A DNA stretch of 64,000 nucleotides, from the NCBI GenBank assembly GCA_964435625.1, contig CAYTAG010000001.1, positions 7,190 to 71,189 on the forward strand. Reading direction: 5' to 3'. Shown here in pieces: positions 12,640 to 56,983 of the stretch. Numbering within the stretch: the stretch's first letter is position 1; every line of letters starts with the position of its first letter. The DNA comes from an uncultured Halobacteriales archaeon. Lineage in GTDB: Archaea; Halobacteriota; Halobacteria; Halobacteriales; PXRE01. Below the pieces are notes generated by a model. The model was not told the origin of the DNA. It saw nothing but the letters and a program-made list of their open reading frames with translations, and ran no database searches. The translations under genes were made by a program, and so were the position numbers.

Positions 12640-12645
12640 TGTTGG

Positions 12646-14915: not shown

Positions 14916-15048
14916 TATGCTTTCCCTCTTCGGCGGACGGACTTTAATTCCCAGCCCAACGGGGAAGCAGTACCAACTCCTACACTATTCCCTTCGAGTC
15001 TAACACAAGTCGCCGTGCAATTGGCGAAAACGGTTAGGCCATCGTTTC

Positions 15049-15807: not shown

Positions 15808-15809
15808 AT

Positions 15810-32919: not shown

Positions 32920-35900
32920 CTACGAGGTGTTCTGCAAACTCGCCAGTTCTGGCCCAACATCTCTCCGAGTGTACGCCGCCAGGCGTTTTTGGGGTTCACG
33001 AACGCCGAGGAACGCCGTCGAATCGGGGGGGTCCGGCGCGTCGACGAGCGCGCGGACGATGGGCAGCAGCGCTGCGATCCAGGGCCACTCATCGACGAGA
33101 TCCTGGACCGGGGGTAATCCATCGCGATCAGCGTAGAAGCACCGGCCGACCGGGTGCTCGGGATCGACGATCTCCTGGACATCGTCGACGAGGCGCTCGG
33201 CCATCTCCCAGAGGACCTGCGGCGCCGTCGCCAGGTCGTCGACGACCCACCACGGGAGTGCGACGTCCAGGACGTCCTCGTCGTCGCGCTCGACGCGCTC
33301 GGCCTCGACGTGATCCACGGGCAGCGCCAGCCGGTACTGGTAGTCCGTCCGGGGGTGAATCGAATCGACGGCATCCCCGCCGTCGAGGGCGACCAGCAGA
33401 CCCAGCGCGTGGAGTTTGTCCCGCCAGTTGCGGAACGACTGCGCCGAGATTCCGGCCGCGTCGACGAGGTCGGCTTGGCTCATGGACTCCGCAGTCAACA
33501 GGGTCGCGACGATCTGCCGCGGCGTCGACGGCCGACCCGGGAGCAACCGCCGCTCGTCGACGGTGCCCTCCTGGAGCGCCTGGGCGACTGCGCAGCGGAC
33601 CTCGTCGAGACGGAGGCCGCGACTGGACGCCTCCGAGGACAGCCAGTGGAGCGCGTTGATCGCGTCGATCGGAGACGGCAACAGCGCCCGGAGCACGCTC
33701 ACCGCCCGTCGCGACGGCCGGAGCCCGCCCTTGTTCCGGAGTGCCCAGCCCACCAGTTCGGCGTACACCGACCGGGGCACGTGCGACCGCACCGGGATGC
33801 GGGCCGCCAGTTCCGGCGCTCCCTCACGGGGTTCCAGCGGGTTGTCGAGGAGTCGGTCGAGCGGATCCTCCAGGTCCTCAACGCCGGGGCCGACGACCAG
33901 GACCTTCCCCAGCAACCGCGCCCACGTGTTGGGGCCTTCGACCTGAGGTTCCACGGCCCGGTCGACCTTCGACTGATCCTGCTCGTACAGCAACCGGTAC
34001 AGCGGTTGCCCGCCGTACTGTGAGCAGATGCTGGCCTGGATCGCCAGGTTCCGAGCCAGGTCCTCGGCGTCTTCTCCGTCGAAGTCCTGGGCGTACCGCG
34101 GGACCTTGACCACGCGGCAGACCTCGACGCCGGCCAGCCACAGCAACATCTCCATGCTCCCGGCCAGCCCGCTCGCCTTCCGCGTGATCTCGGCCCGGAG
34201 GTCCGCGACGTCCTCCTCGTGATCGCCCTGGCTGAGGCGACGGGTCAGGTCCAGGACTTGCTCGAGGCCGACCGTCAGGGCCTCGCAGAGATCGTCGCGA
34301 TCGTCGATGGTCCGCGAGTCCAACCACCCGACGTTACAGAGGTCCCGCAACAGCGCTGGATCGGAGATGCCGAGGCCGCCCAGGCCATCCCCGGCGGCGC
34401 CGTCGACGCGGGCCGGCGTGAGCACCTTTTCCCAGGTGCGCGGACTCGCCAACGCTCGTGCAATGCTGACCAGATACTGCATCGGATTGTCGTACTCGGC
34501 GGCGACGACCAGAACGTCCTCGTCGTAGTCGTAGCCCCAGCTGGGCTCTCGGCGGTCCGTCTGGACGTCCACCGGGTAGTCGTGGAGCGCAATCCCGCGG
34601 TCCGGCGATAGCGTCCGGTAGACGGTCTCTTCCCGCCGATTCAGATAGTTCACGCTGGCGTAGCCGTCGCCCATGCGGTTCCGCGGCCGGTCGGGCGTGG
34701 CGATCGCCTCGGCCGTCTCCTGTTCGGCATCGGGGGTCGTTCCACTCGAACCGGGGGTTGTCCCCCCCTCCCCCTGCGTCTGCCTGCGTGGGACACGGCT
34801 ATTGTCGATGGATTTTTGGACAGCATCAACGCTCTCGGGGAGGGTGGCCTGCTGGGTCAGATCGGCCACGTAGGCCCGGCCAGCAGGCATCAGACGGACA
34901 CGACGGTCGTGGTCCGGCCCATAGGACTCGATAAGCTCGTGGTCCCTGAGGAGCTTGAGATGGCCTCGAATCGTCTGGTCATCGTGGCCAGGGAACCCCG
35001 AGTAGAGCGCCCGGTAGCTGGCTGTCTCACTGTCGTATGACGCGAGTTTCCGGAGGATGGACACATGGGTCTCGTCGGGATCGAACCGCTGCTGCGCGGT
35101 TCTGACCAGGCTCTCGACGTCCACGGTGCCTGACGGGGGGCTAGTAGTAGGGGCATTGCATTGCTCGCGAACGCCCGGCGGTAACATCTCACGGTGGAGC
35201 TGGGCGAGACGTCGCTGGGTCAGGGTCGTCGCGATAATCGACACGTCGGCGCAGCGAGCGAGCGCGAAGAGCAACCGAAGGGTCTGTCGCCGCTGATCGG
35301 CCCGCCTCTCGAACCAGTCCCGTCGCAGCCGCACGTCCAGGCCGAACGTCGCGTCCCCCGCGTCCAGGACATCCATCAACCCGTCCACGACCTCGAGCCC
35401 GAGGTGGCCGACGATAGTCGGATCAGGCTGTCCGATCCCCGAGACGAGATCGAGTGCGTCCTGATGCCGCTGCAACGCCTCGTACTGTGCCGCGACGGGC
35501 CGGCGCCGTCGGTCGGCAAAGTCCGTTTTGGACACGTCCTCATGCGGTCGATCCAACCCTGTCAGCACCCAGGCGACTGGCGCCCAGGGCCCATCGAGGC
35601 CAGCATCCTCGAGGGCGCGGGCGCGCTCGTGAGACGGCACGTCGGCGAGCGCGGTGCGAACCGCGTCGATCAGCGCGTCCTGGAACTCCGTCGACGTCGC
35701 GATTCGCTTCCAGATTGCCGAGGGAGGTGAGTCGTCTAGGTCGATGGTCCCCTCCGAAATCCGCTGCTGCTGGCGGATCGAAACGGACCCCGCAGCGGAC
35801 CACTCGACCGGTAACTCGTCCGGTTTCTCGGCCGCCCACTCGTCGAGACGCTCGGCGACCTCCTCAGAATACGCCGCCTGCCGCTGCTCAGTCCATCGGA

Positions 35901-36333
35901 ACTCGTTCTGCGCCGCGGACCAGTCGCGTGATCGCTTGAGGTGAGTCTCCGCAGCCTCACTGAACAGCTGCGTATGGTGGGAGTCCTCGGGAACCGCATC
36001 CGCAAAGGCATCCCGTTTCGACGACGACACCTCGACGTCGGCGTCGGGGCCGAGATCATCGAACCGCTCTTCGACGACCTCGGCCTGGGCGGCGTAATCG
36101 TCCATCTCCGCATACCGATCCTCATCCCCCGACCAGATGGATAGGATCCTGCCCCGAAGTTCCGCGGCGCCGTCCCTCTCGTCGTGCTGGGCCAGTGGCC
36201 GAAGCTTCGAGGCGCGGTGCTGCTTCCGGCAATTCGGGCAAGTCAAGCGATCCCGTGTCCGTCGATGCTCCCGCTCAACCAGCCACGGGATGTCGCACCG
36301 CGAACACCCGACGACATCCCAGCCCCCGCTCAT
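32920..36333 (-). CDS. large multi-domain protein with N-terminal zinc ribbon and several wHTH-like segments; function unknown
   Basis: 1137 aa, acidic. CSRCD...CPNC at the N-terminus. HTH-like LSQADLVDAAGISAQSFRNWRDKLHALGLLV. No P-loop seen. Confidence 0.7.
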   Translation of the reverse strand: MSGGWDVVGCSRCDIPWLVEREHRRTRDRLTCPNCRKQHRASKLRPLAQHDERDGAAELRGRILSIWSGDEDRYAEMDDYAAQAEVVEERFDDLGPDADVEVSSSKRDAFADAVPEDSHHTQLFSEAAETHLKRSRDWSAAQNEFRWTEQRQAAYSEEVAERLDEWAAEKPDELPVEWSAAGSVSIRQQQRISEGTIDLDDSPPSAIWKRIATSTEFQDALIDAVRTALADVPSHERARALEDAGLDGPWAPVAWVLTGLDRPHEDVSKTDFADRRRRPVAAQYEALQRHQDALDLVSGIGQPDPTIVGHLGLEVVDGLMDVLDAGDATFGLDVRLRRDWFERRADQRRQTLRLLFALARCADVSIIATTLTQRRLAQLHREMLPPGVREQCNAPTTSPPSGTVDVESLVRTAQQRFDPDETHVSILRKLASYDSETASYRALYSGFPGHDDQTIRGHLKLLRDHELIESYGPDHDRRVRLMPAGRAYVADLTQQATLPESVDAVQKSIDNSRVPRRQTQGEGGTTPGSSGTTPDAEQETAEAIATPDRPRNRMGDGYASVNYLNRREETVYRTLSPDRGIALHDYPVDVQTDRREPSWGYDYDEDVLVVAAEYDNPMQYLVSIARALASPRTWEKVLTPARVDGAAGDGLGGLGISDPALLRDLCNVGWLDSRTIDDRDDLCEALTVGLEQVLDLTRRLSQGDHEEDVADLRAEITRKASGLAGSMEMLLWLAGVEVCRVVKVPRYAQDFDGEDAEDLARNLAIQASICSQYGGQPLYRLLYEQDQSKVDRAVEPQVEGPNTWARLLGKVLVVGPGVEDLEDPLDRLLDNPLEPREGAPELAARIPVRSHVPRSVYAELVGWALRNKGGLRPSRRAVSVLRALLPSPIDAINALHWLSSEASSRGLRLDEVRCAVAQALQEGTVDERRLLPGRPSTPRQIVATLLTAESMSQADLVDAAGISAQSFRNWRDKLHALGLLVALDGGDAVDSIHPRTDYQYRLALPVDHVEAERVERDDEDVLDVALPWWVVDDLATAPQVLWEMAERLVDDVQEIVDPEHPVGRCFYADRDGLPPVQDLVDEWPWIAALLPIVRALVDAPDPPDSTAFLGVREPQKRLAAYTRRDVGPELASLQNTS

Positions 36334-36679
36334 GGATCAACCACCGGGAAGATCCCCTGCTGAAGCGGGATCGAGCCGCTGCTATCCACGGTCACCCCGG
36401 GGGTCAGGCCCCGGATCCCGGCTTCTCGACTCCTAAATTGGCTCATGGGCGCAGCCCCGCGCCTGGTCGCCAGCGTGCGGGTCGCGCTGCCCGAACCGGA
36501 TCGCCCGCGAGAACCGCAGAGACGCCACTCTCGGCGGTGGGCAATCTTTATGTGCTCGGAGGGAGAACCAGAGGATGTCCAATCGCCCGGTTCTCCGCGA
36601 CGTTGTGTCCCTAGCTTGCGCTCTGTCGTTTCTTCGGAGGGCCTTATAAATCTCCGTCTGACGAATGACGTATAGTTGA

Positions 36680-36735
36680 CATCCCCCAACTCGCGGCCCC
36701 CGGCGCGAACACAGGCCGGGATGGAGTTGGGGATG
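36680..36735 (-). terminator. nested hairpin downstream of the 34-gene operon
   Basis: CATCCCCCAACTC ... GAGTTGGGGATG arms enclose an inner CCCGGC...GCCGGG stem, directly after the stop at 36753. Confidence 0.4.
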
Positions 36736-36752
36736 CACATAGGTCTGGGAAG

Positions 36753-37367
36753 TTAGTCTGTGGCCGACCACTCGTCGAGCGTCGTCTGGCCGGTCGCGTC
36801 CGGCCGGCCAGCCTCGTCGACGGCGCCGCTCGACGAGCAGGACGGATCAGCATCGCCGGCGTCGCCGTCGAAAACGGTCGCGGCGCCGTTGCCCGTCGGC
36901 CCTAGATCTCGCCCGGGCGCGTCGCGATGGTCGACCGCAGGCTCGCCGCAGGTCCCGCAGCGGAGGCCGGCGCCCGGGCCGTCCGGGATGATCGGCGCGT
37001 CGCAGTCGTCACACCAGGGGATCTCCTCGTCGAGGTCGCTGGCCTGGGCGTCGAGCGCGTCCCGGAGGACCTCGACGTCGTAGTCGACGGCCTGCTCGCC
37101 GCGGACGTCCGGGGCCGCGACGTCGACGCCGGCCATCTCGGCGGCCCGCTCGATGGCGGCCTCGTAGTGGTGGACGCAGGTCAGGACCTCGGCGCCGGCG
37201 ACGTCGACGCTGATCCTGGATGCGTGGCCGCAGAAGCCGTCGACGGCCAGCGCCACGCGGTCGAACTGGTCGTCGTCGGGGTCCGGGACCGTCCCACAGG
37301 GCGGGCTCGTCCGGGGCGGGAGCGTGCTGATTGTCGGGACGGCCGCCTCCGACGGCGCCTCAGACAT
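36753..37367 (-). CDS. hypothetical Cys-containing acidic protein
   Basis: Start set at the internal Met (MSEAPSE), preceded by GGAGGGT. CDDC...CGTCG. Confidence 0.55.
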   Translation of the reverse strand: MSEAPSEAAVPTISTLPPRTSPPCGTVPDPDDDQFDRVALAVDGFCGHASRISVDVAGAEVLTCVHHYEAAIERAAEMAGVDVAAPDVRGEQAVDYDVEVLRDALDAQASDLDEEIPWCDDCDAPIIPDGPGAGLRCGTCGEPAVDHRDAPGRDLGPTGNGAATVFDGDAGDADPSCSSSGAVDEAGRPDATGQTTLDEWSATD

Positions 37368-37560
37368 CGGTGGACCCTCCATCACAGCCGATGCCTGTGT
37401 GTAGGTCGCGGCGATCACACCAGGTATCGGTGCAAATCCAAGCCTCGCCGGTCTTGATGAAAGCCCGCGAGCCGTCGCGCCCTACGGATGTTAGTACCTG
37501 ACGCCCTCCGCAGTCGGGACAGTCCCTCTCGTCACCGAGTGAGCGGTCAGTACTGTTCAT
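37360..37560 (-). CDS. small zinc-ribbon protein
   Basis: CPDCGG...CTDTWC. Internal Met gives an ATGA overlap. Confidence 0.5.
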   Translation of the reverse strand: MNSTDRSLGDERDCPDCGGRQVLTSVGRDGSRAFIKTGEAWICTDTWCDRRDLHTGIGCDGGSTDV

Positions 37561-37784
37561 GACTCGCTCACCCGCCATCCATCAGCAGGTTGCTGGTATC
37601 CTCCCTCGTACCCGCAGTGAGGACACGGCCGACCACCGCAGAGGCACGCCCGATTGCAACAGTCCGGACACACGTGGTGACCGACACCGCGCTCGACGAA
37701 CTCCTGGGGTGGGTGGGAGAGCCCGCGCTCGTTGCGGTACGGTTCATCTGCCGTGTCAAACCTGTTAGCAGTGTCCTCAGACAT
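37557..37784 (-). CDS. small Cys-rich zinc-finger protein
   Basis: CPDCCNRACLCGGRPCPHCG. Confidence 0.5.
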   Translation of the reverse strand: MSEDTANRFDTADEPYRNERGLSHPPQEFVERGVGHHVCPDCCNRACLCGGRPCPHCGYEGGYQQPADGWRVSES

Positions 37785-38571
37785 CTGCCGGCCCCCCTGG
37801 ATGCCCACCGAACGTGGTGAGATCTGGCTGAAGACAGTCCGGCTTCGGGATGTCGAGGACGTCGATGGGCGCGTGATGGAGGAGCCAGTAAACGTACTCC
37901 TTCGGGACCGCCGACCGGACGCCCTGCTTGCCCCACTCGGCGGGGACGCCTTTCGCGTCGGCCAGGGCTTGCACGGACTGCTCGTCGCGGGTGTCTATCG
38001 AAATCTCCGGCGTGCCCGGGGCAACGGCGTTCGGGCACTCGAATGAGGTCTGGAAATGGCGTTCGAGGTCGTAGGGCTGACCGAAGGCCAACCCGTTCAA
38101 TCGCACGTCCGGGTCGAGGTCCCCGACCCGCGTGGCCCCGGGGACGTTCTCGATGATCCAGTGGCGCGACCACTGCCGATAGTGGACGTCGACGACGCGG
38201 CTTCGATGCAGGTAGCGAAGACCTGCCTCAAGGGCCGCTTCGCGCGACCCGTAGTGGATCGGTGCGAGGGACGTGTACGGCGAGCAGGGCGGACTCGCCC
38301 AGATGAGATCCGCGAACGGCGCCCCGATGGGCGGCCGAGTCATGTCCGCCTGGACGAAGTGCCCAGGGTACGTGTCGGACCGATCCACGATGTCGAACCC
38401 GATGAGGTTGATGTCCTGGTCCAGCTGAGCGAGCGCGTGGCCGACGCCGCCATGGCCGCAGAACAGATCGAGGACGAGCGGCGTCTCCGGATCGTCGAAG
38501 ATGTTGTCCTGGATCGGCGGGCGGACCACCTCCGATCCCCCACCACCGCCCACAGACGCGTCACTCGCCAT
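37777..38571 (-). CDS. DNA (cytosine-5) methyltransferase
   Basis: Motif I LDLFCGHGG, motif IV SPPCSPYT, motif VI IIENVPG. Internal Met of track ORF 37777..38703. Confidence 0.85.
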   Translation of the reverse strand: MASDASVGGGGGSEVVRPPIQDNIFDDPETPLVLDLFCGHGGVGHALAQLDQDINLIGFDIVDRSDTYPGHFVQADMTRPPIGAPFADLIWASPPCSPYTSLAPIHYGSREAALEAGLRYLHRSRVVDVHYRQWSRHWIIENVPGATRVGDLDPDVRLNGLAFGQPYDLERHFQTSFECPNAVAPGTPEISIDTRDEQSVQALADAKGVPAEWGKQGVRSAVPKEYVYWLLHHAPIDVLDIPKPDCLQPDLTTFGGHPGGPADV

Positions 38572-38839
38572 CGTCACCCTCCTCGACAGGCCGCCGGTCG
38601 GCAATCTCGACGTGGCCGTAGAGTTCGCACGTCGGGCACTGCACCGGCCCGCAACAGTCCCCGCACTGTCCGGCCATGGCGTCACAGTCCCTGCTGAAGA
38701 CATGGACCCGGCCGCGGGCCGTCTTGACCTCCGTCCGCACCGGGTACTCGTCGGCCCACTGGCCGCCGCAGTTCCCGCACGCGTACTCGACCTCGAACGC
38801 GGGGGGCGCGCTGGCAGCCTCGCCGTTGGTCGGCGTCAC
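38561..38839 (-). CDS. zinc-ribbon protein
   Basis: CGNCGG...CGDCCGPVQCPTC. Confidence 0.6.
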   Translation of the reverse strand: MTPTNGEAASAPPAFEVEYACGNCGGQWADEYPVRTEVKTARGRVHVFSRDCDAMAGQCGDCCGPVQCPTCELYGHVEIADRRPVEEGDDGE

Positions 38840-39045
38840 GTCGAATCCCCTCCGAACGGCCTCCGAAGCGTTAACAGGGCAGCAACGATCACGGCCACGG
38901 CGGCCACATCCCGGCTCCGCAGAAGGAACCGGATGCCGGCGTACAGGACCCCGAGTAGGTACCAGACCGAGCGGTCGGGGGTCTGCTGGGAGTGGTCGGC
39001 AGTGCGGTCCGGTCGTCGGTTAGAGTCGTTCCGTGTGCTGGTCAT
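38836..39045 (-). CDS. small membrane protein
   Basis: 69 aa, two hydrophobic helices. Confidence 0.5.
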   Translation of the reverse strand: MTSTRNDSNRRPDRTADHSQQTPDRSVWYLLGVLYAGIRFLLRSRDVAAVAVIVAALLTLRRPFGGDST

Positions 39046-39362
39046 GCGTTCTCACTCTCCGTGTGCTGGTCGGCCTGGTCGCCGTCGAACTCGTCGAGAA
39101 GGCGATGGAGTCCGTCGTCCGCCTCCAACCAGTCCTGGATCTCTGGTCGCGTCATCGGCCGGGGCAACGGCACGTACTGGACCGGTTCCGCCGCGATGGC
39201 CGGCCCATCCGACTTCTCGGACCACTGCTCCCGGGCGTCGTGGCGGCCAAACCAGATCCGGCCCTTCCCGGACACCTCCGGCCCCTGCATGATGGTGAGC
39301 CAATCCCAGGAGTCGGCGTCGGGCTCCGCTGCGTCGGCGGCCTCCGGGGACCGCTCAGGCAT
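39042..39362 (-). CDS. hypothetical acidic protein
   Basis: Start at the Met preceded by GGAGGTGG. Confidence 0.5.
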   Translation of the reverse strand: MPERSPEAADAAEPDADSWDWLTIMQGPEVSGKGRIWFGRHDAREQWSEKSDGPAIAAEPVQYVPLPRPMTRPEIQDWLEADDGLHRLLDEFDGDQADQHTESENA

Positions 39363-40449
39363 CCGTACCACCTCCCTGATAGGCGTCGAGGCCGGCCTGC
39401 TGGTCGGGAAGGTCCGGGTACGGCTCCCGGTACGCGGGCCCGTCCCCGATGGTCTCCGGCGTCGGGCGGCGCCGCCAGGCTTTGGCCCAGGCCCGCTCGG
39501 CGGGAGAGCCCTGCTCGGTCAGGCGCTCGTCCGGCCAGAGGTGGACCCGCTGGCCGAGGTCGGCGCCGAGGTCCTGGACGGTCCGCAGGTGGCGGAACGC
39601 GTACTCGATCCAGACGCGGGGGTCCTGGCAGTCCGCCAGCGCCCGGGCCAGATTCACCTGGCCGGCCTCGCGGGCCGCCTCGATGCAGCCCTCGTAGTTC
39701 GCCCCGCGGGGGTTGATCGGCTCCGTGAACACGACCGTCGGGTCGAGGCGGTCCTGGAGCGTCGCCAGCAGGCGCCGGAGGTCCTCCCGGTCCTGGGTCG
39801 GGTACGTGGGCGACATCGAGACGTAGACCGGGACGCCGGCGTCGGCCAACCGCTCCAGGCCGCGCAGGCGGCGCTCGACGGTCGGGGCGCCCGGTTCCAG
39901 CGCCCGGACGGCGGCCTCGTCGAGCGCGGGGATCGAGGCGCCGACCGTCACGAGGTCGCGCTCGGCCAGCGCGGCCAGGAACTCGGCATCCCGCTCAGCG
40001 GCCAGGTGCGGCTTGCGGGTGAGGATGCGGACCGGGCGCCAATGGCCCGCCAGCACCATCACCGCTGCGCGGGTAACCGCCGCGACGGCGGGCGTCTGGT
40101 ACGGGTCCGTGGAGATGCTCATATGGACGACGCCCTGGCCGCGCCGCGTGCAGGGCCACTCCCGGTCGTCGGCCAGGTACCGCTGGCAGTCCTGGGCGAG
40201 ATGCTGCGGGAGGTCCTCGCGGACGAGCAAGTAGTCGCCCCAGTCGCCGGCCGGGTCCTCGATCCCCGCGTCGTCGAACTTGTCGCCGGGGTCGCCCCAG
40301 ATGGCCGGCATCGACGGCACGAAGCAGAAGCGACAGCCGTGGAGACAGCCGTCCGCGACGTTGACCACCAGGTCGCTCAGGCCCTTCTTGACGAGGTCCG
40401 AGTCCGACAGCGCTGTCGTCGATGGCGAGGTGGTGATCGTCGGCGTCAT
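39355..40449 (-). CDS. radical SAM protein, SplB / DNA-repair-photolyase-like (COG1533 type)
   Basis: CLHGCRFC (CxxxCxxC). ISTDPYQ. TRKPHL...RD. The overall pattern resembles the SPL-like family. Confidence 0.7.
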   Translation of the reverse strand: MTPTITTSPSTTALSDSDLVKKGLSDLVVNVADGCLHGCRFCFVPSMPAIWGDPGDKFDDAGIEDPAGDWGDYLLVREDLPQHLAQDCQRYLADDREWPCTRRGQGVVHMSISTDPYQTPAVAAVTRAAVMVLAGHWRPVRILTRKPHLAAERDAEFLAALAERDLVTVGASIPALDEAAVRALEPGAPTVERRLRGLERLADAGVPVYVSMSPTYPTQDREDLRRLLATLQDRLDPTVVFTEPINPRGANYEGCIEAAREAGQVNLARALADCQDPRVWIEYAFRHLRTVQDLGADLGQRVHLWPDERLTEQGSPAERAWAKAWRRRPTPETIGDGPAYREPYPDLPDQQAGLDAYQGGGTDA

Positions 40450-40892
40450 CGGATCGCCTCCAACAGATCCTCTGCGGTCATTTTTGAGGCGATAAACTGG
40501 CCAACAGCGGCCGGCCGATCCTCAACCACGGCCTCTGCCGTTTGGTAAATCGGAACCGACGTCCGCAGGCCCCCTTGCTCGCACTGAACCTCCCGGGCAG
40601 CCATCTCGACGTCGCAGAGCCCGAGGACCTCGTCATCGGCGAAGACGATGTAAATGCTCTCCAGCCCTTCCGGTGGTTCAGACGGTTCACCATCCCGAAC
40701 AGCCTGCTGGCCGTCGTAGTAGGGTCCTGTCGCGCACACGGCCTCTGCATCGGCGGACAGCATCTCTCGCAGACGGACGGCCTCGGAGCCATCGTAGAAC
40801 GCCGCGAACGGCGTCCAGTCGCCAAAGCCGTCCATCACGACAACGAGATCTGCGCCCCCGTAGTCGCACTCTACCGAGGACGGCTCGCTCAA
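40446..40892 (-). CDS. hypothetical acidic protein
   Basis: 148-aa ORF, 4-nt overlaps at both ends. Confidence 0.55.
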   Translation of the reverse strand: MSEPSSVECDYGGADLVVVMDGFGDWTPFAAFYDGSEAVRLREMLSADAEAVCATGPYYDGQQAVRDGEPSEPPEGLESIYIVFADDEVLGLCDVEMAAREVQCEQGGLRTSVPIYQTAEAVVEDRPAAVGQFIASKMTAEDLLEAIR

Positions 40893-41086
40893 GCCGACTC
40901 ACCCCCCCAGTCGGTTATAATCGCCTGCAGGACGGTCACCGCGAGATAGAAGCCGATCCCCAGGAACGCCGCGAGAGCCAGATGCGACGGCGGCGAATCG
41001 ACGCCGATAACCAGCATCGCCACGAGGCCGGCACCGGCTGCGGCCAGTGGGGACGCTTCATCAAGATACCATCGGAGCCGGCTCAT
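40889..41086 (-). CDS. small membrane protein
   Basis: 65 aa, two TM helices. Confidence 0.5.
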   Translation of the reverse strand: MSRLRWYLDEASPLAAAGAGLVAMLVIGVDSPPSHLALAAFLGIGFYLAVTVLQAIITDWGGESA

Positions 41087-41616
41087 GCAGACCCTCCCTG
41101 GAACTGGTCGAGCGTCGCGTGCTCGGATTGCTGGGTCCCCGAGGACTCCCGTTCGATCTCGTCCGGCGCCGGATGGTGCGCGACGTCGATGTCGGTCTCG
41201 CTAGCGAGGACGTCCGCTAGGAGCCGTCGATGGCACCACAGCGGGTCGCGCTCCCAGCAGATGAGCCACACGTCGTGGCCCGCGTCCGCGCGGTCCAGGA
41301 CGCGCCGCTGGACCTGCTGGAGGACCTGATGCGGCTCCGGTTGCGCCAGATGGTCCCGGTAGCGGCTCTCGAAGTCGACGGTCGCCCAGGCGACCTGCAT
41401 GGGCCGCGCGGCGCCGTCCTCGTCGGCCGCCTCCTCGACCTGCTTCGTCGGGGCCAGGAGGTCCTCGGGCGGGCCCAGCGTCTCCTCGTTCCAGTCCACG
41501 ATTGCGTGGACGAAGTCCCGAGGGCGCCGAACCACGCCGAGGACGAGGTCGTCCGGCGCGGGCTCTGCGACCTCGGACCCCGTCGAGAGGGCGCTGAAGT
41601 ACGAGGTCCGGATCAA
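41083..41616 (-). CDS. DUF488-family protein
   Basis: N-terminal MIRTSYF and the C-terminal signature VWLICWERDPLWCHRRLLADVL. Confidence 0.55.
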   Translation of the reverse strand: MIRTSYFSALSTGSEVAEPAPDDLVLGVVRRPRDFVHAIVDWNEETLGPPEDLLAPTKQVEEAADEDGAARPMQVAWATVDFESRYRDHLAQPEPHQVLQQVQRRVLDRADAGHDVWLICWERDPLWCHRRLLADVLASETDIDVAHHPAPDEIERESSGTQQSEHATLDQFQGGSA

Positions 41617-42047
41617 CGCTGGTCACCCCCGTCATCCCAGGCTTCCAGACACACCCACGAGCAGAACGCCACCTGCCCGTCGTCGGTGCTCCGGTACGTC
41701 CACCCGGGAATCCGGTTCCCGACTGTGATGTTGTACTTCTCGACACCGCATTGCACACACTCCGCCTCGCACACCTGGACCCGACGGAGGTGGGCGTGCG
41801 GACAGTACGGACACGAGACGACGGCATACCCGGTCCAGGCTGTGAACACCCACAGCAGGTTGCCAACCGGAGTCATGGCGAGCAAGAATCCGATGGCAAT
41901 CGCTCCGAGGATCGCCAGCACCAGGACGCTAGTGTCGAACAGCAGGGTGACTGCCGCGAGGGAGCCGCCCGTCAGCAACCCGGACCCGAGTCGAGTGATG
42001 ATCAGGCCTCGTCTCGCGTCCGTCCGGGTATCGAAAGCGGACCCCAT
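41613..42047 (-). CDS. membrane protein with Cys cluster
   Basis: TM helices followed by CPYCPHAH...CEAECVQCG. Confidence 0.55.
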   Translation of the reverse strand: MGSAFDTRTDARRGLIITRLGSGLLTGGSLAAVTLLFDTSVLVLAILGAIAIGFLLAMTPVGNLLWVFTAWTGYAVVSCPYCPHAHLRRVQVCEAECVQCGVEKYNITVGNRIPGWTYRSTDDGQVAFCSWVCLEAWDDGGDQR

Positions 42048-42370
42048 CAGGCGTCACCCCCGTCATCGGTGGGTGATCGGTCGGCCTCACGGACGGCAGG
42101 GGGCGGACCGGACTCGACGCGGCCACGCCAGTAGCCGAGGCCCAGCCACAGGCACAAAGCCAGCAGCGCGGCGACGAAGTCGAAGGCGTCCCCCGTCGCG
42201 GTCGCGCGGACGAAGACGTCCATCAGTAGCGCGATGACGGTAAACACAATCGCCGCCTGTAGCACCGGCGTCGACCGGCCGTCGTTGACTTCCCGATACA
42301 GGCTTTCGACCAGAATCAGGAGTAGGAAGACGCCAAACCCGATGTCATGGGCCTGGAGTTGGAGGATCAT
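42047..42370 (-). CDS. membrane protein
   Basis: 107 aa, three TM helices. Confidence 0.55.
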   Translation of the reverse strand: MILQLQAHDIGFGVFLLLILVESLYREVNDGRSTPVLQAAIVFTVIALLMDVFVRATATGDAFDFVAALLALCLWLGLGYWRGRVESGPPPAVREADRSPTDDGGDA

Positions 42371-43005
42371 GCCGCACCACCTGCCTCCTCGGCGGTCATG
42401 GCCGCGTCGATGTCCTCGATCAGGGCGACCGGTGGGTGGTCCGGGGCGGTCGGCTCCTCGCCGCAGATGTGGAGCGGATGCGAGCAGGGCCCGCAGTAGG
42501 CGTTGACGCCGCCGTCGACGTGGTAGATGGGCAGGCCCATCACGACGACGGCCTTGCCCCAGCGCCGGCGCTCGCCGTCCTGGTCGGGGCGCTCACAGCA
42601 ACAGCAGTCGACGGTCGCGTCCTCGTCGACGTCGACGTCGACGTACCGGAGCACGCCCCAGGCGCGGAGGCCGCCGACGCGGGCCGACCGATACCGCCGC
42701 AGAAGCCAGCGGCCCCAATTGGCGCCGGCGTAGACGATGACGGCCATGAAGGACCCGGCGACCACGAATTCGAGGCCCGACATGAGAACGCCATACGCCT
42801 GGCTGGTGAACTCTGCGAGATCCGCCAGCGAATGAGTAAAGACGGGCTCACTGGATCCCTGGCCTCGACCCAGGGCAGCCGACTGGAGGACCGAGTCCGT
42901 GACTACGGACGCAACATAGAAACAGACGAGGGCCAGCACTAACCCGGCGGTGAGACGCCACACCATCAGGAAAGCCGCCATCGGCTCTCTCTGGCGGCGC
43001 TTCAC
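42367..43005 (-). CDS. membrane protein with C-terminal Cys cluster
   Basis: TM helices followed by CCCCERPD...CGPCSHPLHIC. Confidence 0.55.
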   Translation of the reverse strand: MKRRQREPMAAFLMVWRLTAGLVLALVCFYVASVVTDSVLQSAALGRGQGSSEPVFTHSLADLAEFTSQAYGVLMSGLEFVVAGSFMAVIVYAGANWGRWLLRRYRSARVGGLRAWGVLRYVDVDVDEDATVDCCCCERPDQDGERRRWGKAVVVMGLPIYHVDGGVNAYCGPCSHPLHICGEEPTAPDHPPVALIEDIDAAMTAEEAGGAA

Positions 43006-43643
43006 GCCGGCTCACCTCCCTCGCCGTCGGTCACGGCGTCGAGGACCTGCCGGGCGCGCTCGGAGGGGTCGTCGCCGGTGATGAACCCTCGGTGCGTGCC
43101 CTGCTCGAACGGCGGCAGGTCCACCGGCGGCATTAGCGGGAGCGCGAGGTCGATCCAGCGCTGTTGGCCGTCGGCTTCGCGCAGGTACCAGTGGGTCGCG
43201 TCCACGTCGTCGACGCCCTCGACGTCGCTCCAGCTGAGGCAGTAGATCTCCGGGTCGCAGTCACGGAGGTGGTAGTAGGCTTCCGCTGCGGGGTAGCACA
43301 GCCCCAGCAGCGGGTCCTCGTCCTCGCCGGTGTCGTACCCGTCCATCTGGAGTTCGGGGTGCTCACGAAGGTACTCGCGGATCTGCAGGGCGTCCTGATC
43401 CGGGACGACCAGGACCCGCTCGGGGAGCACGTAGCCCTCGCCGAGGCAGACCGAGCACCGGCCGTCCTCGTGGATGCAGTGCCCCTTCGCGTGACAGATG
43501 TCGTCGATGCAGCTGAACCCGCGACCGCGACATGACGGGCACCGGCGCTGGCGGTCGCAGTGACACTGCGGCGTGGGCTGGTTGCAGGTCCGGCAAACGT
43601 TGATCAGGTCCCGGGATGGACCCGAGTCGAGGTCAATCGCCAT
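43002..43643 (-). CDS. Cys-rich zinc-finger protein (DnaJ-type CxxCxGxG-like repeat)
   Basis: CRTCNQ...CPSCRGRG...CSVCLGEG. Internal Met preceded by GGAGGTGA. Confidence 0.6.
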   Translation of the reverse strand: MAIDLDSGPSRDLINVCRTCNQPTPQCHCDRQRRCPSCRGRGFSCIDDICHAKGHCIHEDGRCSVCLGEGYVLPERVLVVPDQDALQIREYLREHPELQMDGYDTGEDEDPLLGLCYPAAEAYYHLRDCDPEIYCLSWSDVEGVDDVDATHWYLREADGQQRWIDLALPLMPPVDLPPFEQGTHRGFITGDDPSERARQVLDAVTDGEGGEPA

Positions 43644-44610
43644 CCGGCTCACCTCCCTCGTCAGCCTCCGGGGTGGTGTCAGGATCGCCGTCGGACGCAG
43701 CCGGGAGGGCCTCCGTCGGGTCGTGCCCAGCTTCAATCCGCTCCAAGAGCGCGTCCATGCCCGCTTCGAGTTCGTCGACCTCCTCGGCCATCCGCTCCGT
43801 GGACTGGTCGATCCGGCGTCGGAGGCTGTCGATTTCCCCTCGTAGCGAACCGTAGCGGTCCTGCTGGAACAGCTTCGTGAGCCGCCACGCGAGTTCGAGC
43901 GTCTGGATCTGCTCCTCGTCGAACGAATAGGTGGAGAGGAAGTCGAACCCGGCCTCCTGGAGCGCGTCCCAGTTGTCCGCCTTCCGCCGGAGGCGGTCGA
44001 GGTTCCGGTCGATCTCCCGCTCGGCCACGCCCTCGTCGATGGCCTCCTGGTACCCGCGCGACCGGGCTTCCTCGAGGTCGTCCTTCGTGTAGTTCGACTC
44101 GTCGCCCACGGTCTGTTTGAGGAACCGGACCCAGAACCGGCGGCCGGGCTCGCCCTGCTGGTGTTCGGTAAGCTCCGAGTCCTGGAGCTTGTACAGCTGT
44201 TCGGAGTTGGGCTTGAGTTCCAGGTAGCCCCAGCCGTCGGGGATCTCGGACTCCTCGACGACGCCCTTCGGGGCGACGACGTAGAACTCGTCCGCGAGTC
44301 GGACGAAGTAATCGGCCTTCGTGCCGTCGCGCTTCTCCCGGAGCCAGTCCGACCGACTGGCCTTGAACTCGAACCCGACGACCTTGTAGTTGCGCGAGGG
44401 GAGGGTGTTCACCGCGAGGCAGTCACAGACGCGCCCGTCGCTGCCAGGCGCGCCGTACTCGAACATGAGAACCCACTCGGGGGCGTCGAACCGCCGCCGG
44501 ACAGAGAGCTTGATCTTGCTCGTCACCTCGGCGTCCGACAGTTCGTCGAGCGGCTTCTCGTGAAGCTCCCGCCATCGCTCGTCAACCGCGTCGTCGTCAG
44601 ACCGCGACAT
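43633..44610 (-). CDS. PD-(D/E)xK nuclease-fold protein, MmcB-like, with C-terminal coiled-coil/acidic tail
   Basis: VCDCLAV...VVGFEFKASRSDWLRE...YFVRLADEFYVVAP. Confidence 0.55.
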   Translation of the reverse strand: MSRSDDDAVDERWRELHEKPLDELSDAEVTSKIKLSVRRRFDAPEWVLMFEYGAPGSDGRVCDCLAVNTLPSRNYKVVGFEFKASRSDWLREKRDGTKADYFVRLADEFYVVAPKGVVEESEIPDGWGYLELKPNSEQLYKLQDSELTEHQQGEPGRRFWVRFLKQTVGDESNYTKDDLEEARSRGYQEAIDEGVAEREIDRNLDRLRRKADNWDALQEAGFDFLSTYSFDEEQIQTLELAWRLTKLFQQDRYGSLRGEIDSLRRRIDQSTERMAEEVDELEAGMDALLERIEAGHDPTEALPAASDGDPDTTPEADEGGEPDGD

Positions 44611-45004
44611 CCGTCAGCACCTCCTGAGGATCGGGATCCGTCTCGTCTGTCCGGTACCACTGGATCGACCCGCACTCGGGGCAGGGATGCTCGTGCGCCG
44701 GGTTGACCGGCCGCTCGAACACGAACAGCGCCTCACAGTCCCGGCATCGGCCCACGCCGTCGCCGGGCGCCCCGAGTTGGACCCAGATCGTCGTCCGGGG
44801 ACACGCCGAGAGGTTCTTCGACTCCTCCCGGCGGCCGCAGCCGCGGCACTCGTAGGCCGTCGGTTGCTGGGTGCGGCTGTTCCGCCGGACGACGGCCAGA
44901 TGGTGCCCGTTGACGACGTGGAGCCGCTGGTTGGCTTGCCGGATGGGGTGGTCACCTCCGGCAGTGGCGACGTCGCTCTCCGGCTCAGGCATTGGAGATC
45001 GCAC
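44597..45004 (-). CDS. zinc-ribbon protein
   Basis: CRGCG...CRDC...CPECG. Confidence 0.55.
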   Translation of the reverse strand: MRSPMPEPESDVATAGGDHPIRQANQRLHVVNGHHLAVVRRNSRTQQPTAYECRGCGRREESKNLSACPRTTIWVQLGAPGDGVGRCRDCEALFVFERPVNPAHEHPCPECGSIQWYRTDETDPDPQEVLTDVAV

Positions 45005-45533
45005 CTCCCGTGCCGGTCGACTGGTCCATAACGAGTCGATCCTGGATCTGCTCGATCTGTGTCATGATGAACTCGGCTGCTTGCTGTGGCGTCTCGATTG
45101 CAGGATGGCGGTCGATGATCGCTTCCGCCAGGTCGGTGACGTCGTCCCGCACCTCCTGCCGAAGGTCACGGACTGCGTCCGGCGCCCCCCGGAGGTAGTA
45201 GGCGTCGGCCCGTGACCGGGGCGTTCCCGTAAGGTCGAGGCCCGAAAGCCCGACCCACTCCTCGCAGGTGAAGCAGTACGTGTCCGGCACTTCGACGGTC
45301 ACGTCGGCTTCCATCCCTGGCCCGACGTCCGGGTGGATCGTGATCTGCGAGGTCGTGTCCCGCACGAGGTGGTGGCGATGCTCCTGGAGCGCCCGGCGGC
45401 GCTCGTCGCCGGCGAGCGCCTTCGCACTGTACTCCTCGCGGACCCGGTCGGAGAGCGCCGCGTCGATGGCCTCCTGATCGGGCGGCTCCTGGCCGTGTCC
45501 TGCCGGAACGGTGTCCCTCCCCTCGTCAGACAT
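44985..45533 (-). CDS. hypothetical acidic protein
   Basis: 182-aa ORF. GGAGGTG lies upstream. Confidence 0.55.
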   Translation of the reverse strand: MSDEGRDTVPAGHGQEPPDQEAIDAALSDRVREEYSAKALAGDERRRALQEHRHHLVRDTTSQITIHPDVGPGMEADVTVEVPDTYCFTCEEWVGLSGLDLTGTPRSRADAYYLRGAPDAVRDLRQEVRDDVTDLAEAIIDRHPAIETPQQAAEFIMTQIEQIQDRLVMDQSTGTGGAISNA

Positions 45534-46101
45534 CGGCCGGCACCTCCCAGGAGAGCGACCTCGACCGAATCTCGTCGGGCGAGACGCGCTCCAGCACGTT
45601 CGACGAGGAGTCGAGGTTGAAGGCCAGGGCCTTGTCGTCGGACTCCCGTTCGGCGGGACCGACGACGATCCGGTACTGATCGCCGGACCAGTGCTCGGCG
45701 GTCACGCCGGGCGCCAGGTCCTCGGGTGCGACGCCGATGTCGACGGCCTCGATCCGCTCGACCGCCCCCTGTCGGACCCGGTCCATCTCGTTGCCGTGGT
45801 AGAGGCGCTCGGCCGCCCACAGCGTCCCCCAGCCGTCACGGGGTTCGTAGGTAGCCTCCAGGTCCCAGATGGTCCCGTCGACGTGGACCTCGACGGAGCA
45901 GTAGCCGCCGGGCGGCTCGCCGTCGACGGCGAAGCGGTGGACCGTCCCGCACTGGGGGTCCGCATCCGCGGGTTCGAAGACGACCGTCTCGTCACGGACC
46001 AGGTCCTCGACGAGCGGGTGCGGATCGAGGTGGTCCGCGCAATGGTCAGGCACCGCGACCGCCCCCCTCAAGAGAGTGTAAATCCTTCCAGGTCGGCCCA
46101 C
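45526..46101 (-). CDS. hypothetical protein (start uncertain; GTG at 46053 is possible)
   Basis: 191-aa track ORF. The shorter start reduces the overlap with the upstream gene from 56 to 8 nt. Confidence 0.5.
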   Translation of the reverse strand: MGRPGRIYTLLRGAVAVPDHCADHLDPHPLVEDLVRDETVVFEPADADPQCGTVHRFAVDGEPPGGYCSVEVHVDGTIWDLEATYEPRDGWGTLWAAERLYHGNEMDRVRQGAVERIEAVDIGVAPEDLAPGVTAEHWSGDQYRIVVGPAERESDDKALAFNLDSSSNVLERVSPDEIRSRSLSWEVPADV

Positions 46102-46534
46102 TCACCCGGTCAGTGCGGTCGGATCGACTCCCACCGGAGTCGGCGCCGGCGCCGCCGTCCCCGCCGCAGCGGTCCGCGTCACTCCGGGAGCCGTCACCGT
46201 CGACGTTAACGTCGGCCGCAAGGGCAAGGTCCCGGAGTTCAATCCAATCCAGGCGCTCAACTTCACGGTCGGACCCGATGACCTCGCGGATCGCCGCCAG
46301 TTTCTCCGGGACCGTGCGCGAAGCGGCGTCCTCAATCCCGAGGCCGGCCGCGATGGCCTCCAGGTGGCCGGAGACGAACTCGATTGCCGCCAGCGAGTTC
46401 GAGTTCGACTGCTGGACTCGCTCCCGGAAGTCGGCGCCGAAGCCGAAGTGGTCAGCAATCGCAATCCGAAGGTCAACTGACCGCGCCGAGGCGTCGATGG
46501 TCGATGTCTCGTCGCGGGAGCGACTTGCCGTCAC
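46046..46534 (-). CDS. hypothetical protein
   Basis: 162-aa ORF, coupled. Confidence 0.5.
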   Translation of the reverse strand: MTASRSRDETSTIDASARSVDLRIAIADHFGFGADFRERVQQSNSNSLAAIEFVSGHLEAIAAGLGIEDAASRTVPEKLAAIREVIGSDREVERLDWIELRDLALAADVNVDGDGSRSDADRCGGDGGAGADSGGSRSDRTDRVSGPTWKDLHSLEGGGRGA

Positions 46535-46941
46535 GTCCCACCACCTCGCAGCGAGGACGTCTTGCGACCGATCACGCTGGGGTCGTGCTCGGCCACGTCA
46601 TCGTCGGCTGTATCGTAGAGGAGTTCGAGCGGGAGGTCGACCAGGTCCGTCTCCTGGTCGATGACCCATGCGACCTCCGGGTAGCGCTTCCCGATGGTGG
46701 CCTCGTGACAGTCGGCCGCCGCCGCGACCTGGCCCTGGGTGCGCCGGTCGTTGCTGAGCGTGGCCGCGAGGTAGGTGCAGGCCGCCGCCATCGTCGTGGG
46801 CTTTTTCCCCGAGGCGACGGGGTGCATCGCAACCTCGTCGGCCATGTCCCGGGCGAGGGCCGCCGTCTCGTCGCGGAGGTCCAGGCCGGCCAGGACCTCG
46901 TCGATCACGTCCGCCGCGGTCCGGATCTCGGTCCGGCTCAC
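46531..46941 (-). CDS. TFB/TFIIB cyclin-repeat-like protein (single repeat, no zinc ribbon)
   Basis: GKKPTTMAAACTYLAATLSNDRRTQGQVAAAADCHEATIGKRYPEV. Confidence 0.55.
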   Translation of the reverse strand: MSRTEIRTAADVIDEVLAGLDLRDETAALARDMADEVAMHPVASGKKPTTMAAACTYLAATLSNDRRTQGQVAAAADCHEATIGKRYPEVAWVIDQETDLVDLPLELLYDTADDDVAEHDPSVIGRKTSSLRGGGT

Positions 46942-47297
46942 GGCGAGTCACCTCCCTCGGCCAGGGCCCGACGAGACGCCCGGCGGCGGACATCGAACGC
47001 CATCAGCAAGCGGATCCACGCGATATTGAGCAGGACCACCCCGACCACGCCCACGACGGCGCCGCCGACATACGCCCATCCCACGGTGACCTTGAACCAG
47101 GTGCCTGCCGCCTCGGCCGAGACGCCCTGGAACGACACCGCGATGCCCGCCACGAGGATCGTGACGCCGAGCAGGGCCAGCATCAGCGCGTCCGTCTGCG
47201 CCCAGCTGTAGCGCCGCCACTCCTCGGGGGAGAACGGCGCCGGCGCGGGCGCGGCCTCATCGTCGGAGGGCGCGGGCAGGCGCTCAGGCTCAGCCAT
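46938..47297 (-). CDS. membrane protein
   Basis: Internal Met (MAEPERL) preceded by GGAGGTG. Three TM helices. Confidence 0.5.
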   Translation of the reverse strand: MAEPERLPAPSDDEAAPAPAPFSPEEWRRYSWAQTDALMLALLGVTILVAGIAVSFQGVSAEAAGTWFKVTVGWAYVGGAVVGVVGVVLLNIAWIRLLMAFDVRRRASRRALAEGGDSP

Positions 47298-47550
47298 CGA
47301 TACCACGCACCTCCAATTTCCTCCGGGCTTTCTGCCGGATCTCGTCCGCTCGATCCTCGAGTCCGAGGCTACGCACCTCGTACTCGACACAGAAATCGAG
47401 TGGCGCATCTTCGAGGACGCCCACGACGACATTATAAACGGCGTCCTCCACCAGTTCATCCTCGCTGAAGTCGTCCGGCCAGATCCGCACGCCAGACAGA
47501 TCGTAATGGCCGGCCCGTTCTGGAGGCCCCCCGACGTCCGAATCAGTCAT
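47290..47550 (-). CDS. hypothetical acidic protein
   Basis: Internal Met (MTDSDVGG). 8-nt overlap. Confidence 0.5.
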   Translation of the reverse strand: MTDSDVGGPPERAGHYDLSGVRIWPDDFSEDELVEDAVYNVVVGVLEDAPLDFCVEYEVRSLGLEDRADEIRQKARRKLEVRGIDG

Positions 47551-49865: not shown

Positions 49866-50251
49866 GCTTGCTCACCTCCTTCGCGCCGGCCACCAACCGG
49901 CGACGGTCCATTCTCGCGGCCCCCGTTGACGAGGTACTTGTAGTCCTGGTCCTCGCCGGCGAGGACGGGCGACCGCTGGTCGCGCTGGTCGTCCTGGTCC
50001 TGCTCCCCGGCGTCCTCCTGGTCGGCCACACGCGGCGGCCGTTGCCGGCCTTCCGCGAGGGCCCGCCGGTAGCGCTCGACCTCGGCCCGGAGACGGTCGA
50101 CGTCCTCAACGAGGTCGTCGCTCGGGAGGTCCGCCGGGACGATCACGAGCATCCGCCCTCGACTCGTCTCGATGGACACGAGCAGGTGGTCGCCGTGGTT
50201 CTGGTGGACGGCGGCCGGATCGAGGGCGACCTCCGAGTCCTGGGACGACAT
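49862..50251 (-). CDS. hypothetical protein
   Basis: Internal Met (MSSQDSEV) in a TGATG overlap with the upstream stop. Confidence 0.5.
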   Translation of the reverse strand: MSSQDSEVALDPAAVHQNHGDHLLVSIETSRGRMLVIVPADLPSDDLVEDVDRLRAEVERYRRALAEGRQRPPRVADQEDAGEQDQDDQRDQRSPVLAGEDQDYKYLVNGGRENGPSPVGGRREGGEQA

Positions 50252-50628
50252 CAGAAGACCACCCCCACGACCGCGAGACCGGCAACCAGACACAGACTCA
50301 CGATGACAGCAGTGGCCCCAGCAATCCGCATCAGGCGGCTGACGTCTGTCGGGTCAACCTCGTACTTGCGCGACGCCCACTGCGCCGCCAGAGATGCCCC
50401 TAGTTTACCTGACCAGTGAAGGATCAAAAACACGGCCAACAGAACCAGAAGGAGGAACACGGCGCCAGCCGCCGATTCCCAGTTCGACGGGAGCGACCAA
50501 TTAGCCCCATGGCTCTTGATGACCGCGGCAAAGACGGCGGTCGTCATCGCGAGGTTGAGCGAGAGGAGGCTGAGGACCGCCACCAGGCGGAAATCGAACT
50601 TCGGCCAGACCGACGAGTCGTCCGTCAA
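50251..50628 (-). CDS. membrane protein
   Basis: 125 aa, four TM helices. The C-terminus, AVVGVVF, is shared with the next gene. Confidence 0.5.
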   Translation of the reverse strand: MTDDSSVWPKFDFRLVAVLSLLSLNLAMTTAVFAAVIKSHGANWSLPSNWESAAGAVFLLLVLLAVFLILHWSGKLGASLAAQWASRKYEVDPTDVSRLMRIAGATAVIVSLCLVAGLAVVGVVF

Positions 50629-56950: not shown

Positions 56951-56983
56951 TCGTCGCCCCCGAGCGAGGATCTTAGATGCCAT

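Follow-up and report, generated by a model that had tools for sequence, protein, structure and literature searches.

We examined a 64,000-nt stretch of DNA from an uncultured Halobacteriales archaeon (contig CAYTAG010000001.1; hereafter, the window), in which a minus-strand operon directly upstream of a RepH-type replication gene encodes a very small C5-methyltransferase-like protein, a radical S-adenosylmethionine (SAM) enzyme related to spore photoproduct lyase (SPL), a DUF488-N3a protein, and an MmcB-like nuclease, all within positions 37777-44610. On balance, we lean toward the view that this region is a mosaic of separately acquired DNA-acting cargo, with radical SAM and either DUF488 or DUF4326 as its one recurrent gene pair and with docking onto the sliding clamp through short C-terminal peptides as a probable theme.

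Conservation of the gene set and recurrence of one pair

Hidden Markov models (HMMs) of all four families were searched over 120 fetched related loci (designated by L numbers below), and the four families occurred together only in the window. The MmcB-like gene never accompanied the other three, and pairs were rare, except for radical SAM with DUF488 or DUF4326. The outcome was no different when 36 window proteins were searched by tblastn. The first-pass annotation had offered a four-gene DNA modification pathway as one reading of the region and had named a lack of gene-neighborhood conservation as one observation that would contradict it. Such a lack is what the 120 loci display, and the pathway proposal is not sustained. 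Each of the four genes is, taken singly, common mobile-element cargo, and the four-gene "system" is ordinary, as mobile elements commonly gather orphan methyltransferases, nucleases, and repair-type enzymes beside their replication genes.

Loci in which a radical SAM gene stands with a DUF488 gene were found on distant, lower-GC contigs. In L096, DnaB and two small genes are followed by DUF488-N3a, radical SAM, and D12 methyltransferase genes. In L114, the radical SAM gene precedes DUF488 with a 14-nt gap, and in L027 the genes for DUF5131, DUF488, and radical SAM follow one another with overlapping ends. A looser arrangement is present in L085 (NucS-like, radical SAM, HNH, two DUF488 genes, and DuOB), where DUF488 lies 2 kb from the radical SAM gene. 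Chance does not readily account for three same-strand radical SAM-DUF488 junctions on unrelated contigs. Two haloarchaeal elements, L005 and L057, carry DUF4326 1.5-2.6 kb upstream of the radical SAM gene, and L057 repeats the order of the window, with DUF4326, radical SAM, and mini-methyltransferase genes and then MCM in place of RepH; the genes between these ordered members are unrelated in L057 and the window. As a control, 80 phage loci with a C5-methyltransferase (1.18 Mb) were searched, and they contained no DUF488, SPL-like radical SAM, or MmcB-like gene. The idea that the neighbors of DUF488 may hint at its function survives for the radical SAM enzyme, given its position in L096, L114, L027, and L085. 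The recurrence of an SPL-like radical SAM gene beside DUF488 or DUF4326 is a testable lead.

Family and fold assignments of the four proteins

The motifs that the first-pass annotation had quoted for the four proteins are all present at their coordinates on the minus strand, and its four family calls, namely C5-methyltransferase, SplB-like radical SAM, DUF488, and MmcB-like, were borne out. The open reading frame (ORF) at 37777-38703 carries LDLFCGHGG (motif I), ASPPCSPY (motif IV), and IIENVPG (motif VI). The true start of the methyltransferase is probably Met45 (38571), because database protein P0001 has a length of 264 aa, and the gene is then placed at 37777-38571. Pfam PF00145 gave no match to the window methyltransferase at E ≤ 0.01, a precomputed PF00145 match was present in only 3 of 120 homologues, and the single sequence found no match in the PDB. 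The protein matches phrog_363 ("DNA methyltransferase", 9e-14), and the family profile matches DNMT2 (5e-7) over motifs I-VI. We found 148 haloarchaeal homologues of approximately 220-320 aa, mostly named "hypothetical". In an alignment of 32 homologues, motif I is kept as GxGG, and the Pro-Cys pair of motif IV is retained together with ENV, RHFETSF, and RSAIP, with Pro95, Cys96, and Glu141 invariant and Asn142 and Val143 nearly so; the window protein likewise has RHFQTSF and RSAVP. In the AlphaFold model (predicted local distance difference test score, pLDDT, 82.5), only about 40 residues extend from RHFQTSF to the C-terminal helices, where a target-recognition domain would sit. The top 33 Foldseek matches of this model in the PDB were all C5-cytosine methyltransferases, including EhMeth, DNMT1, DNMT3A/B, and MET1, with E values of 1.6e-7 to 3e-5 and template modeling (TM) scores of up to 0.51. 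Judged from the predicted structure, 37777-38571 is a very small enzyme of the C5-methyltransferase fold, almost without a target-recognition domain, and its genomic context points to DNA as the probable substrate. Neighboring proteins were scanned against Pfam, NCBIfam, PHROGs, and PADLOC, and no restriction endonuclease or defense family was found among them, in agreement with the proposed orphan status. Relatives of the methyltransferase adjoin PF00145, D12, Eco57I, or Dam methyltransferases in mobile-element contexts, without radical SAM or DUF488 genes. A family of very small C5-methyltransferase-fold proteins that is now annotated as "hypothetical" and missed by Pfam matters for the reading of haloarchaeal methylomes.

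The radical SAM enzyme (39355-40449, minus strand) carries CLHGCRFC and ISTDPYQ and matches Pfam Radical_SAM PF04055 at 2.9e-14 (54 bits against a cut-off of 29.5), while its scores for NCBIfam PA0069 (88.8 against 360) and Rv2578c (59.3 against 430) fall far below the cut-offs. Its homologues bear the names "SPL family radical SAM" or "DNA repair photolyase". The profile of the family aligned with SPL in the PDB at E 0.28, over the cluster loop only. In comparisons with the AlphaFold model (pLDDT 85.3), SPL was the best structural match, with a TM score of about 0.5, a root-mean-square deviation (rmsd) of 3.4-4.5 Å over 244-267 columns, and 14-15% identity; the SPL entries 4FHG, 4K9R, 4FHF, and 4FHC ranked at or near the top, and most other top-ranked structures had rmsd values of 8-11 Å. 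Residue 116 of the window protein is Pro (TDPY), and Cys (TDCY) occupies this position in the other 31 aligned homologues. The window enzyme belongs to a mobile-element clade that is separate from the chromosomal clade. Its closest relatives (51-60% identity) reside in virus-like loci that also carry N6_N4 methyltransferase, DUF4326, Dam, DpdA, DUF6884, DUF6610, integrase, and terminase-like genes, and a scan of viral contigs with the single radical SAM protein returned nothing.

Further radical SAM loci were recovered as L041-L120, most of which are not mobile elements and many of which seem chromosomal. We scanned 146 ORFs that flank SPL-family radical SAM genes in 27 loci; the commonest family was the GMT-like winged helix-turn-helix (wHTH) family PF22560 (7), followed by NAD-dependent DNA ligase (3) and MutS (2), and the neighborhood of these mostly non-mobile-element loci is of a DNA-repair type. 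A DUF6610 protein is encoded at 25726-26772 of the window, and the same family occurs in L007 (17034-17972), approximately 8 kb from the homologous radical SAM gene.

The DUF488-N3a protein (41083-41616, minus strand) contains CWERDPLWCHRRL and passes the cut-offs of both PF22751 DUF488-N3a (39.1 against 27) and PF04343 (30.9 against 22.2). Cys120, Glu122, Cys128, His129, and Arg130 are invariant in 14 homologues. For relatives with 47-52% identity, the gene immediately downstream encodes a DUF7845 protein (about 540-680 aa), both in SNJ2, as gp21, and in integrated betapleolipovirus-like loci. Among the haloarchaeal DUF488-N3a loci (L013, L015, L016, L017, which is SNJ2, and L019-L026), a large protein of this size is usually encoded downstream on the same strand, directly or past a few small ORFs; DUF7845 was matched by six of the flanking ORFs scanned, and the order in SNJ2 runs from gp21 to gp19. 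Viral contigs yielded nothing with the single DUF488 protein and one weak locus with the DUF488 alignment. DUF488 and its subclade DUF488-N3a are assigned to the rhodanese-phosphatase superfamily. Burroughs and Aravind 2023 reportedly predicted roles in nucleic-acid modification for this clade, and the DuOB and HNH partners in L085 fit the predicted conflict or DNA-end-processing systems. A relationship between DUF488 and DUF4326 is likewise reported from that study, and our hhalign comparison, given below, did not confirm it. As a side observation, a small protein consisting of a single TFIIB cyclin repeat is encoded within the operon at 46531-46941, and a similar TFIIB gene (5774-6205) is located directly upstream of DUF488 in L014.

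The MmcB-like protein (43633-44610, minus strand; 325 aa) contains FEFKASRSDW within a nuclease domain at residues ~55-140, which is followed by a long helical C-terminal region. The window protein had no direct match in Pfam; PF06319 was matched by 6 of 43 homologues (best 1e-6), and the window protein matches phrog_5429 ("DNA repair protein", 3e-15). Asp63, Glu81, and Lys83, the PD-(D/E)xK triad, are invariant in the 43 sequences. This is a large family, with 4697 representative clusters and relatives in 60 bacteriophage records.

C-terminal tails, a proposed mechanism, and rival explanations

Three proteins of the region end in a peptide that matches the consensus of the PCNA-interacting peptide (PIP) box of Haloferax, QxxLxxFx (PMC7776575): QAGLDAYQ in the radical SAM enzyme (QAGLDAY, 39379-39399, minus strand), QPDLTTFG in the methyltransferase (QPDLTTF, 37810-37830, minus strand), and QTTLDEWS in a 221-aa protein encoded at the end of the operon. 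The strict motif QxxLxx[FYW] was present in the last 30 residues of 18 of 31 radical SAM proteins of the mobile-element clade and of none of 89 chromosomal ones (shuffled mean, 0.3), and other hypersaline subclades have the tails TTLNSFF, QSALDEF, and QTLSSF. In the methyltransferase family, the relaxed motif QxxLxx[FYWVI] was found in 47 of 120 members (shuffled mean, 2.7). Every haloarchaeal DUF488-N3a protein that is of the SNJ2 gp21 type has an acidic linker and then ends in [ST]L-x-[DE]-F, and an L..[FYW] tail was counted in 12 of 14 DUF488 sequences (shuffled mean, 1.4). Across the ORFs of these loci, the motif was enriched approximately 12-fold at C-termini. The retention of a short motif within otherwise variable tails suggests a putative docking peptide, and the PIP-like tail, which is restricted to one clade, points to the sliding clamp as a recruitment platform. 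Separately, the RepH-type protein has QKRLAAY about 23 residues from its end, and the gene of the 221-aa protein with the QTTLDEW tail stands directly before the gap upstream of repH.

We propose that the region is the variable accessory part of an operon directly upstream of repH and that it may serve as a replication-coupled toolkit for methylation and for repair or processing. The mini C5-methyltransferase would be an orphan self-methylase, most likely marking element DNA against host restriction, and the SPL-like enzyme would act on a DNA lesion or base by radical chemistry. The resulting sugar-phosphate or DNA-end intermediate could then be processed by DUF488, a Cys/His/Arg enzyme with a phosphatase-like fold, and the MmcB-like protein would be an independent phage-type structure or lesion nuclease. 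PIP-like peptides form the ends of the methyltransferase, the radical SAM enzyme, and the 221-aa protein, and DUF488 has such an end without the Gln; we therefore propose that these four dock on host PCNA. The clamp-docked proteins would then work on element DNA while it is being replicated or shortly afterward. A more far-reaching version is tentative, and we would not expect it to hold: the mobile-element radical SAM clade, the mini C5-methyltransferases without a target-recognition domain, and DUF488-N3a might form a clamp-tethered toolbelt on nascent element DNA, in which radical SAM with DUF488 or DUF4326 would be a conserved two-step DNA processing or modification module common to archaeal viruses and bacterial phages. 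If true, it would give the first concrete, testable function for DUF488 and the archaeal SplB-like enzymes.

Several observations weigh against the picture of a mosaic with one recurrent pair and a docking theme. With regard to the pair, DUF488 was present in only 3 of 87 loci fetched with the radical SAM protein, many of them on short contigs, most haloarchaeal DUF488-N3a genes have no radical SAM gene nearby, and two genes stand between the radical SAM and DUF488 genes in the window itself. The Poisson argument for the pair uses an assumed background density, and a direct contrast with the control set gave P ~0.07. An hhalign comparison of DUF488 with DUF4326 returned a probability of 2%, with only the active-site motif C..E.D...CH aligned. 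As for the tails, the MmcB-like protein has no PIP-like motif, and the motif counts overstate the evidence because homologues are not independent samples. The methyltransferase misses the Pfam model, and its best relatives in the PDB include the tRNA enzyme DNMT2. Finally, the window copy of the radical SAM enzyme, with Pro in place of the conserved Cys, may be a catalytic variant or impaired, as far as its alignment tells.

The evidence on the radical SAM enzyme leans in two directions. SPL as the nearest fold, the repair-type neighbors at mostly non-mobile-element loci, and the role of MmcB as a crosslink nuclease (PMC9578287) speak for repair, and the steady proximity of the radical SAM gene to DNA methyltransferases, and once to DpdA, in viral replication modules speaks for modification. 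Taken to its full extent, the latter leads to a multi-step hypermodification of element DNA: DUF488 or DUF4326, the radical SAM enzyme, and the enzyme of the methyltransferase fold would work in turn to make a non-canonical base that blocks host restriction. We consider this explanation unlikely. It would account for the shared order of a phosphatase-fold enzyme, radical SAM, mini C5-methyltransferase, and replication gene in two otherwise unrelated haloarchaeal elements, the window and L057, for the consecutive DUF488, radical SAM, and D12 methyltransferase genes of L096, for the N6_N4 methyltransferase directly upstream of radical SAM in L005, which also has DUF4326, and for DpdA 2 kb from radical SAM in L006; a near-absent target-recognition domain would, moreover, suit a methyltransferase that is not sequence-specific, and the roles in nucleic-acid modification that Burroughs and Aravind 2023 reportedly predicted would fit as well. 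However, the class of the partner methyltransferase varies (C5-like, D12 N6A, or N4/N6), and a methylated base is therefore an unlikely substrate of the radical SAM enzyme. Four loci of the methyltransferase family have no radical SAM gene, methyltransferases are common in such modules anyway, and the other, mostly non-mobile-element radical SAM loci have repair-type contexts. No precursor-level enzymes (hydroxymethylase, kinase, aminotransferase, or Que proteins) were present among the scanned window proteins, and we rejected hypermodification at the precursor level on this ground.

If the repair direction is followed instead, the radical SAM enzyme could be a true spore photoproduct lyase that acts on 5-thyminyl-5,6-dihydrothymine in dehydrated, high-salt DNA, aided by the MmcB-like nuclease in UV and desiccation repair. 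The structural match, the names of the homologues, and the repair-type neighbors at other loci fit this explanation, which we nevertheless regard as distinctly improbable: sequence likeness to SPL is confined to the cluster loop, the fold match amounts to a TM score of about 0.5 at 14-15% identity, the NCBIfam scores lie far under their cut-offs, the window copy lacks the conserved Cys of the family, and no photolyase or Uvr context is present in the window. Spore photoproduct is not documented in archaea, and a review has flagged the function of archaeal SplB-like enzymes as an open question (PMC4929162). The suggestion in the first-pass annotation of a UV toolkit for a high-irradiance niche thus finds no specific support. 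Restriction-modification or defense, with the methyltransferase protecting self DNA and the MmcB-like PD-(D/E)xK nuclease restricting, is the explanation to which we give hardly any weight. Both genes do lie within one operon, and weak PADLOC matches were obtained for the methyltransferase (mad2, 3.8e-6) and for DUF488 (PDC candidates). Yet the two lie at a distance of 5 kb and ten genes from each other and never occur together elsewhere in the 120 loci, the nuclease has no PADLOC match and belongs to a broadly phage-borne family of about 250-300 aa, and relatives of the methyltransferase cluster with other methyltransferases rather than with nucleases. We rejected restriction-modification for the missing co-occurrence and because no nuclease family is encoded next to the methyltransferase.

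The surrounding operon, the element, and known systems

The window is rich in GC (~0.67-0.70), and a filter based on the GC content of third codon positions resolved one run of minus-strand genes across the region. From at least 47459 down to 36753, the genes overlap by 1-20 nt, and 15 of 22 starts are preceded, 5-12 nt upstream and inside the previous gene, by Shine-Dalgarno-like sites (GGAGG/GGTGA). These overlaps and sites indicate that the run at 36753-47459 is a translationally coupled minus-strand operon. Many of its proteins end in "...GG.." because the Shine-Dalgarno sequence of the next overlapping gene is read through, so that we dropped a "GG" near many C-termini as part of the tail motif.

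As the first-pass annotation had noted, small zinc-ribbon and membrane proteins are interleaved with the four enzymes; the translations include Cys-rich and hydrophobic ones, and all are encoded on the minus strand. Between the methyltransferase and radical SAM genes lie those for a 92-aa Cys-rich, zinc-ribbon-like protein (38561-38839, no family match), a 69-aa hydrophobic protein (38836-39045) that overlaps each neighbor by 4 nt, and a 109-aa acidic protein (39042-39371, no family match). The two genes between radical SAM and DUF488 encode a 148-aa acidic protein (40446-40892, no family match) and a 65-aa membrane-type protein (40889-41086). Upstream of DUF488 are the genes for a 144-aa protein (41613-42047) in which a CxxC...CxxC motif accompanies a membrane segment, a 107-aa membrane-type protein (42047-42370), a 212-aa membrane and Cys-rich protein (42367-43005), relatives of which are encoded close to radical SAM in L006 and L007, and a 244-aa zinc-finger protein (43002-43736) that matches phrog_12251 and probably starts at Met32 (~43643). 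The last gene of the operon encodes the 221-aa acidic protein with a Cys motif (36753-37418), for which no family match was obtained and which ends in QTTLDEW.

The operon is separated by a 419-nt gap from the gene of a 1137-aa replication protein (32920-36333, minus strand) with a DUF5817 domain at its N-terminus. This protein matches phrog_17376 ("replication protein", 1.5e-98) and, along its entire length, shares 31% identity with RepH of Halobacterium virus ChaoS9; relatives of it occur on 42 haloarchaeal plasmids. A ParA/MinD-type partition ATPase is encoded downstream of it (30897-32006, minus strand). From the RepH-type gene and ParA, we identify a RepH-type haloarchaeal mobile element, either a plasmid or a plasmid-like provirus of the RepH/ParA type. 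Scans of the large window proteins detected neither a capsid nor a terminase gene, megablast of 36500-45100 against plasmids and phages gave no match, Rfam returned nothing over 30000-58000, and the two intergenic gaps, when scanned for repeats, showed nothing iteron-like. The one gap of any size within the long run of minus-strand genes is flanked by a 27-nt direct repeat (50251-50277 and 50625-50651), whose copies are 93% identical and lie 374 nt apart. GC content drops to 0.57-0.60, against ~0.68, in two islands at 12001-16000 and 56001-58000, and a DDE_Tnp_1 transposase is encoded at 15856-17520. A 1085-aa Laminin_G_3 protein (60412-63669, with 59201-59644) shares 38% identity along its whole length with a 1039-aa protein in L015 and is partly similar to L016. 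Both are pleolipovirus-like loci that also carry DUF488 and DUF7845, and this likeness hints at a virus-derived module in the window.

Among known systems, the methyltransferase resembles the orphan C5-methyltransferases of phages and plasmids (PF00145; M.HhaI, DNMT2/EhMeth, and the DNMT3 catalytic domain) in its Rossmann methyltransferase fold and in motifs I (FxGxG), IV (PC), and VI (ENV). Across its N-terminal half it shares 28-40% identity with 482 IMG/VR phage stretches. A nuclease partner is missing, and its relatives stand beside other methyltransferases in mobile elements. It differs from them in that its family measures only about 220-265 aa with approximately 40 residues in place of the target-recognition domain, in failing PF00145, in having RHF(E/Q)TSF rather than QxRxR as motif VIII, and in its PIP-like tail. 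The radical SAM enzyme shares the CxxxCxxC cluster motif and the partial TIM-barrel radical SAM fold with SplB and SPL proteins of COG1533 and is 47-50% identical to chromosomal haloarchaeal "SPL family" proteins. Unlike these, it belongs to the separate mobile-element clade and has a C-terminal extension with QxxLxx[FY]; its likeness in sequence to true SPL is marginal, and Pro replaces the Cys of TDCY. Archaeal SplB-like genes are linked with, and adjacent to, nreB, which encodes a PCNA-binding repair factor (PMC4929162). No NreB or GMT-wHTH partner was detected beside the window gene, and the likeness here is a thematic link of the family to PCNA-associated repair.

With the thymidine and 7-deazaguanine (Dpd) hypermodification clusters of phages, the region shares a virus-borne mix of radical SAM and DNA-modifying enzymes, and DpdA is located near the homologous radical SAM gene in L006; it differs in that no DpdA, Que protein, hydroxymethylase, or kinase was among the scanned window proteins and that its gene set is not conserved. 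The DUF488 protein keeps the conserved Cys, Glu, and Cys-His-Arg residues of the DUF488-N3a subclade and its virus or plasmid context next to nucleic-acid enzymes. In haloarchaea, the usual partner of DUF488-N3a is DUF7845, the large protein of betapleolipoviruses, rather than a radical SAM enzyme, whereas the window copy, with its acidic linker and L-x-D-F tail, is part of a RepH operon. MmcB of Caulobacter crescentus is an SOS-induced PD-(D/E)xK endonuclease for mitomycin C and cisplatin (crosslink) damage (PMC9578287). The window protein is similar to it in the PD-(D/E)xK triad, in the PF06319 matches at the family level, and in the phrog_5429 match. MmcB (PF06319) is chromosomal and SOS-regulated, whereas the window protein, which falls short of the Pfam model, has an extra helical C-terminal half of about 180 aa and is encoded by a mobile element.

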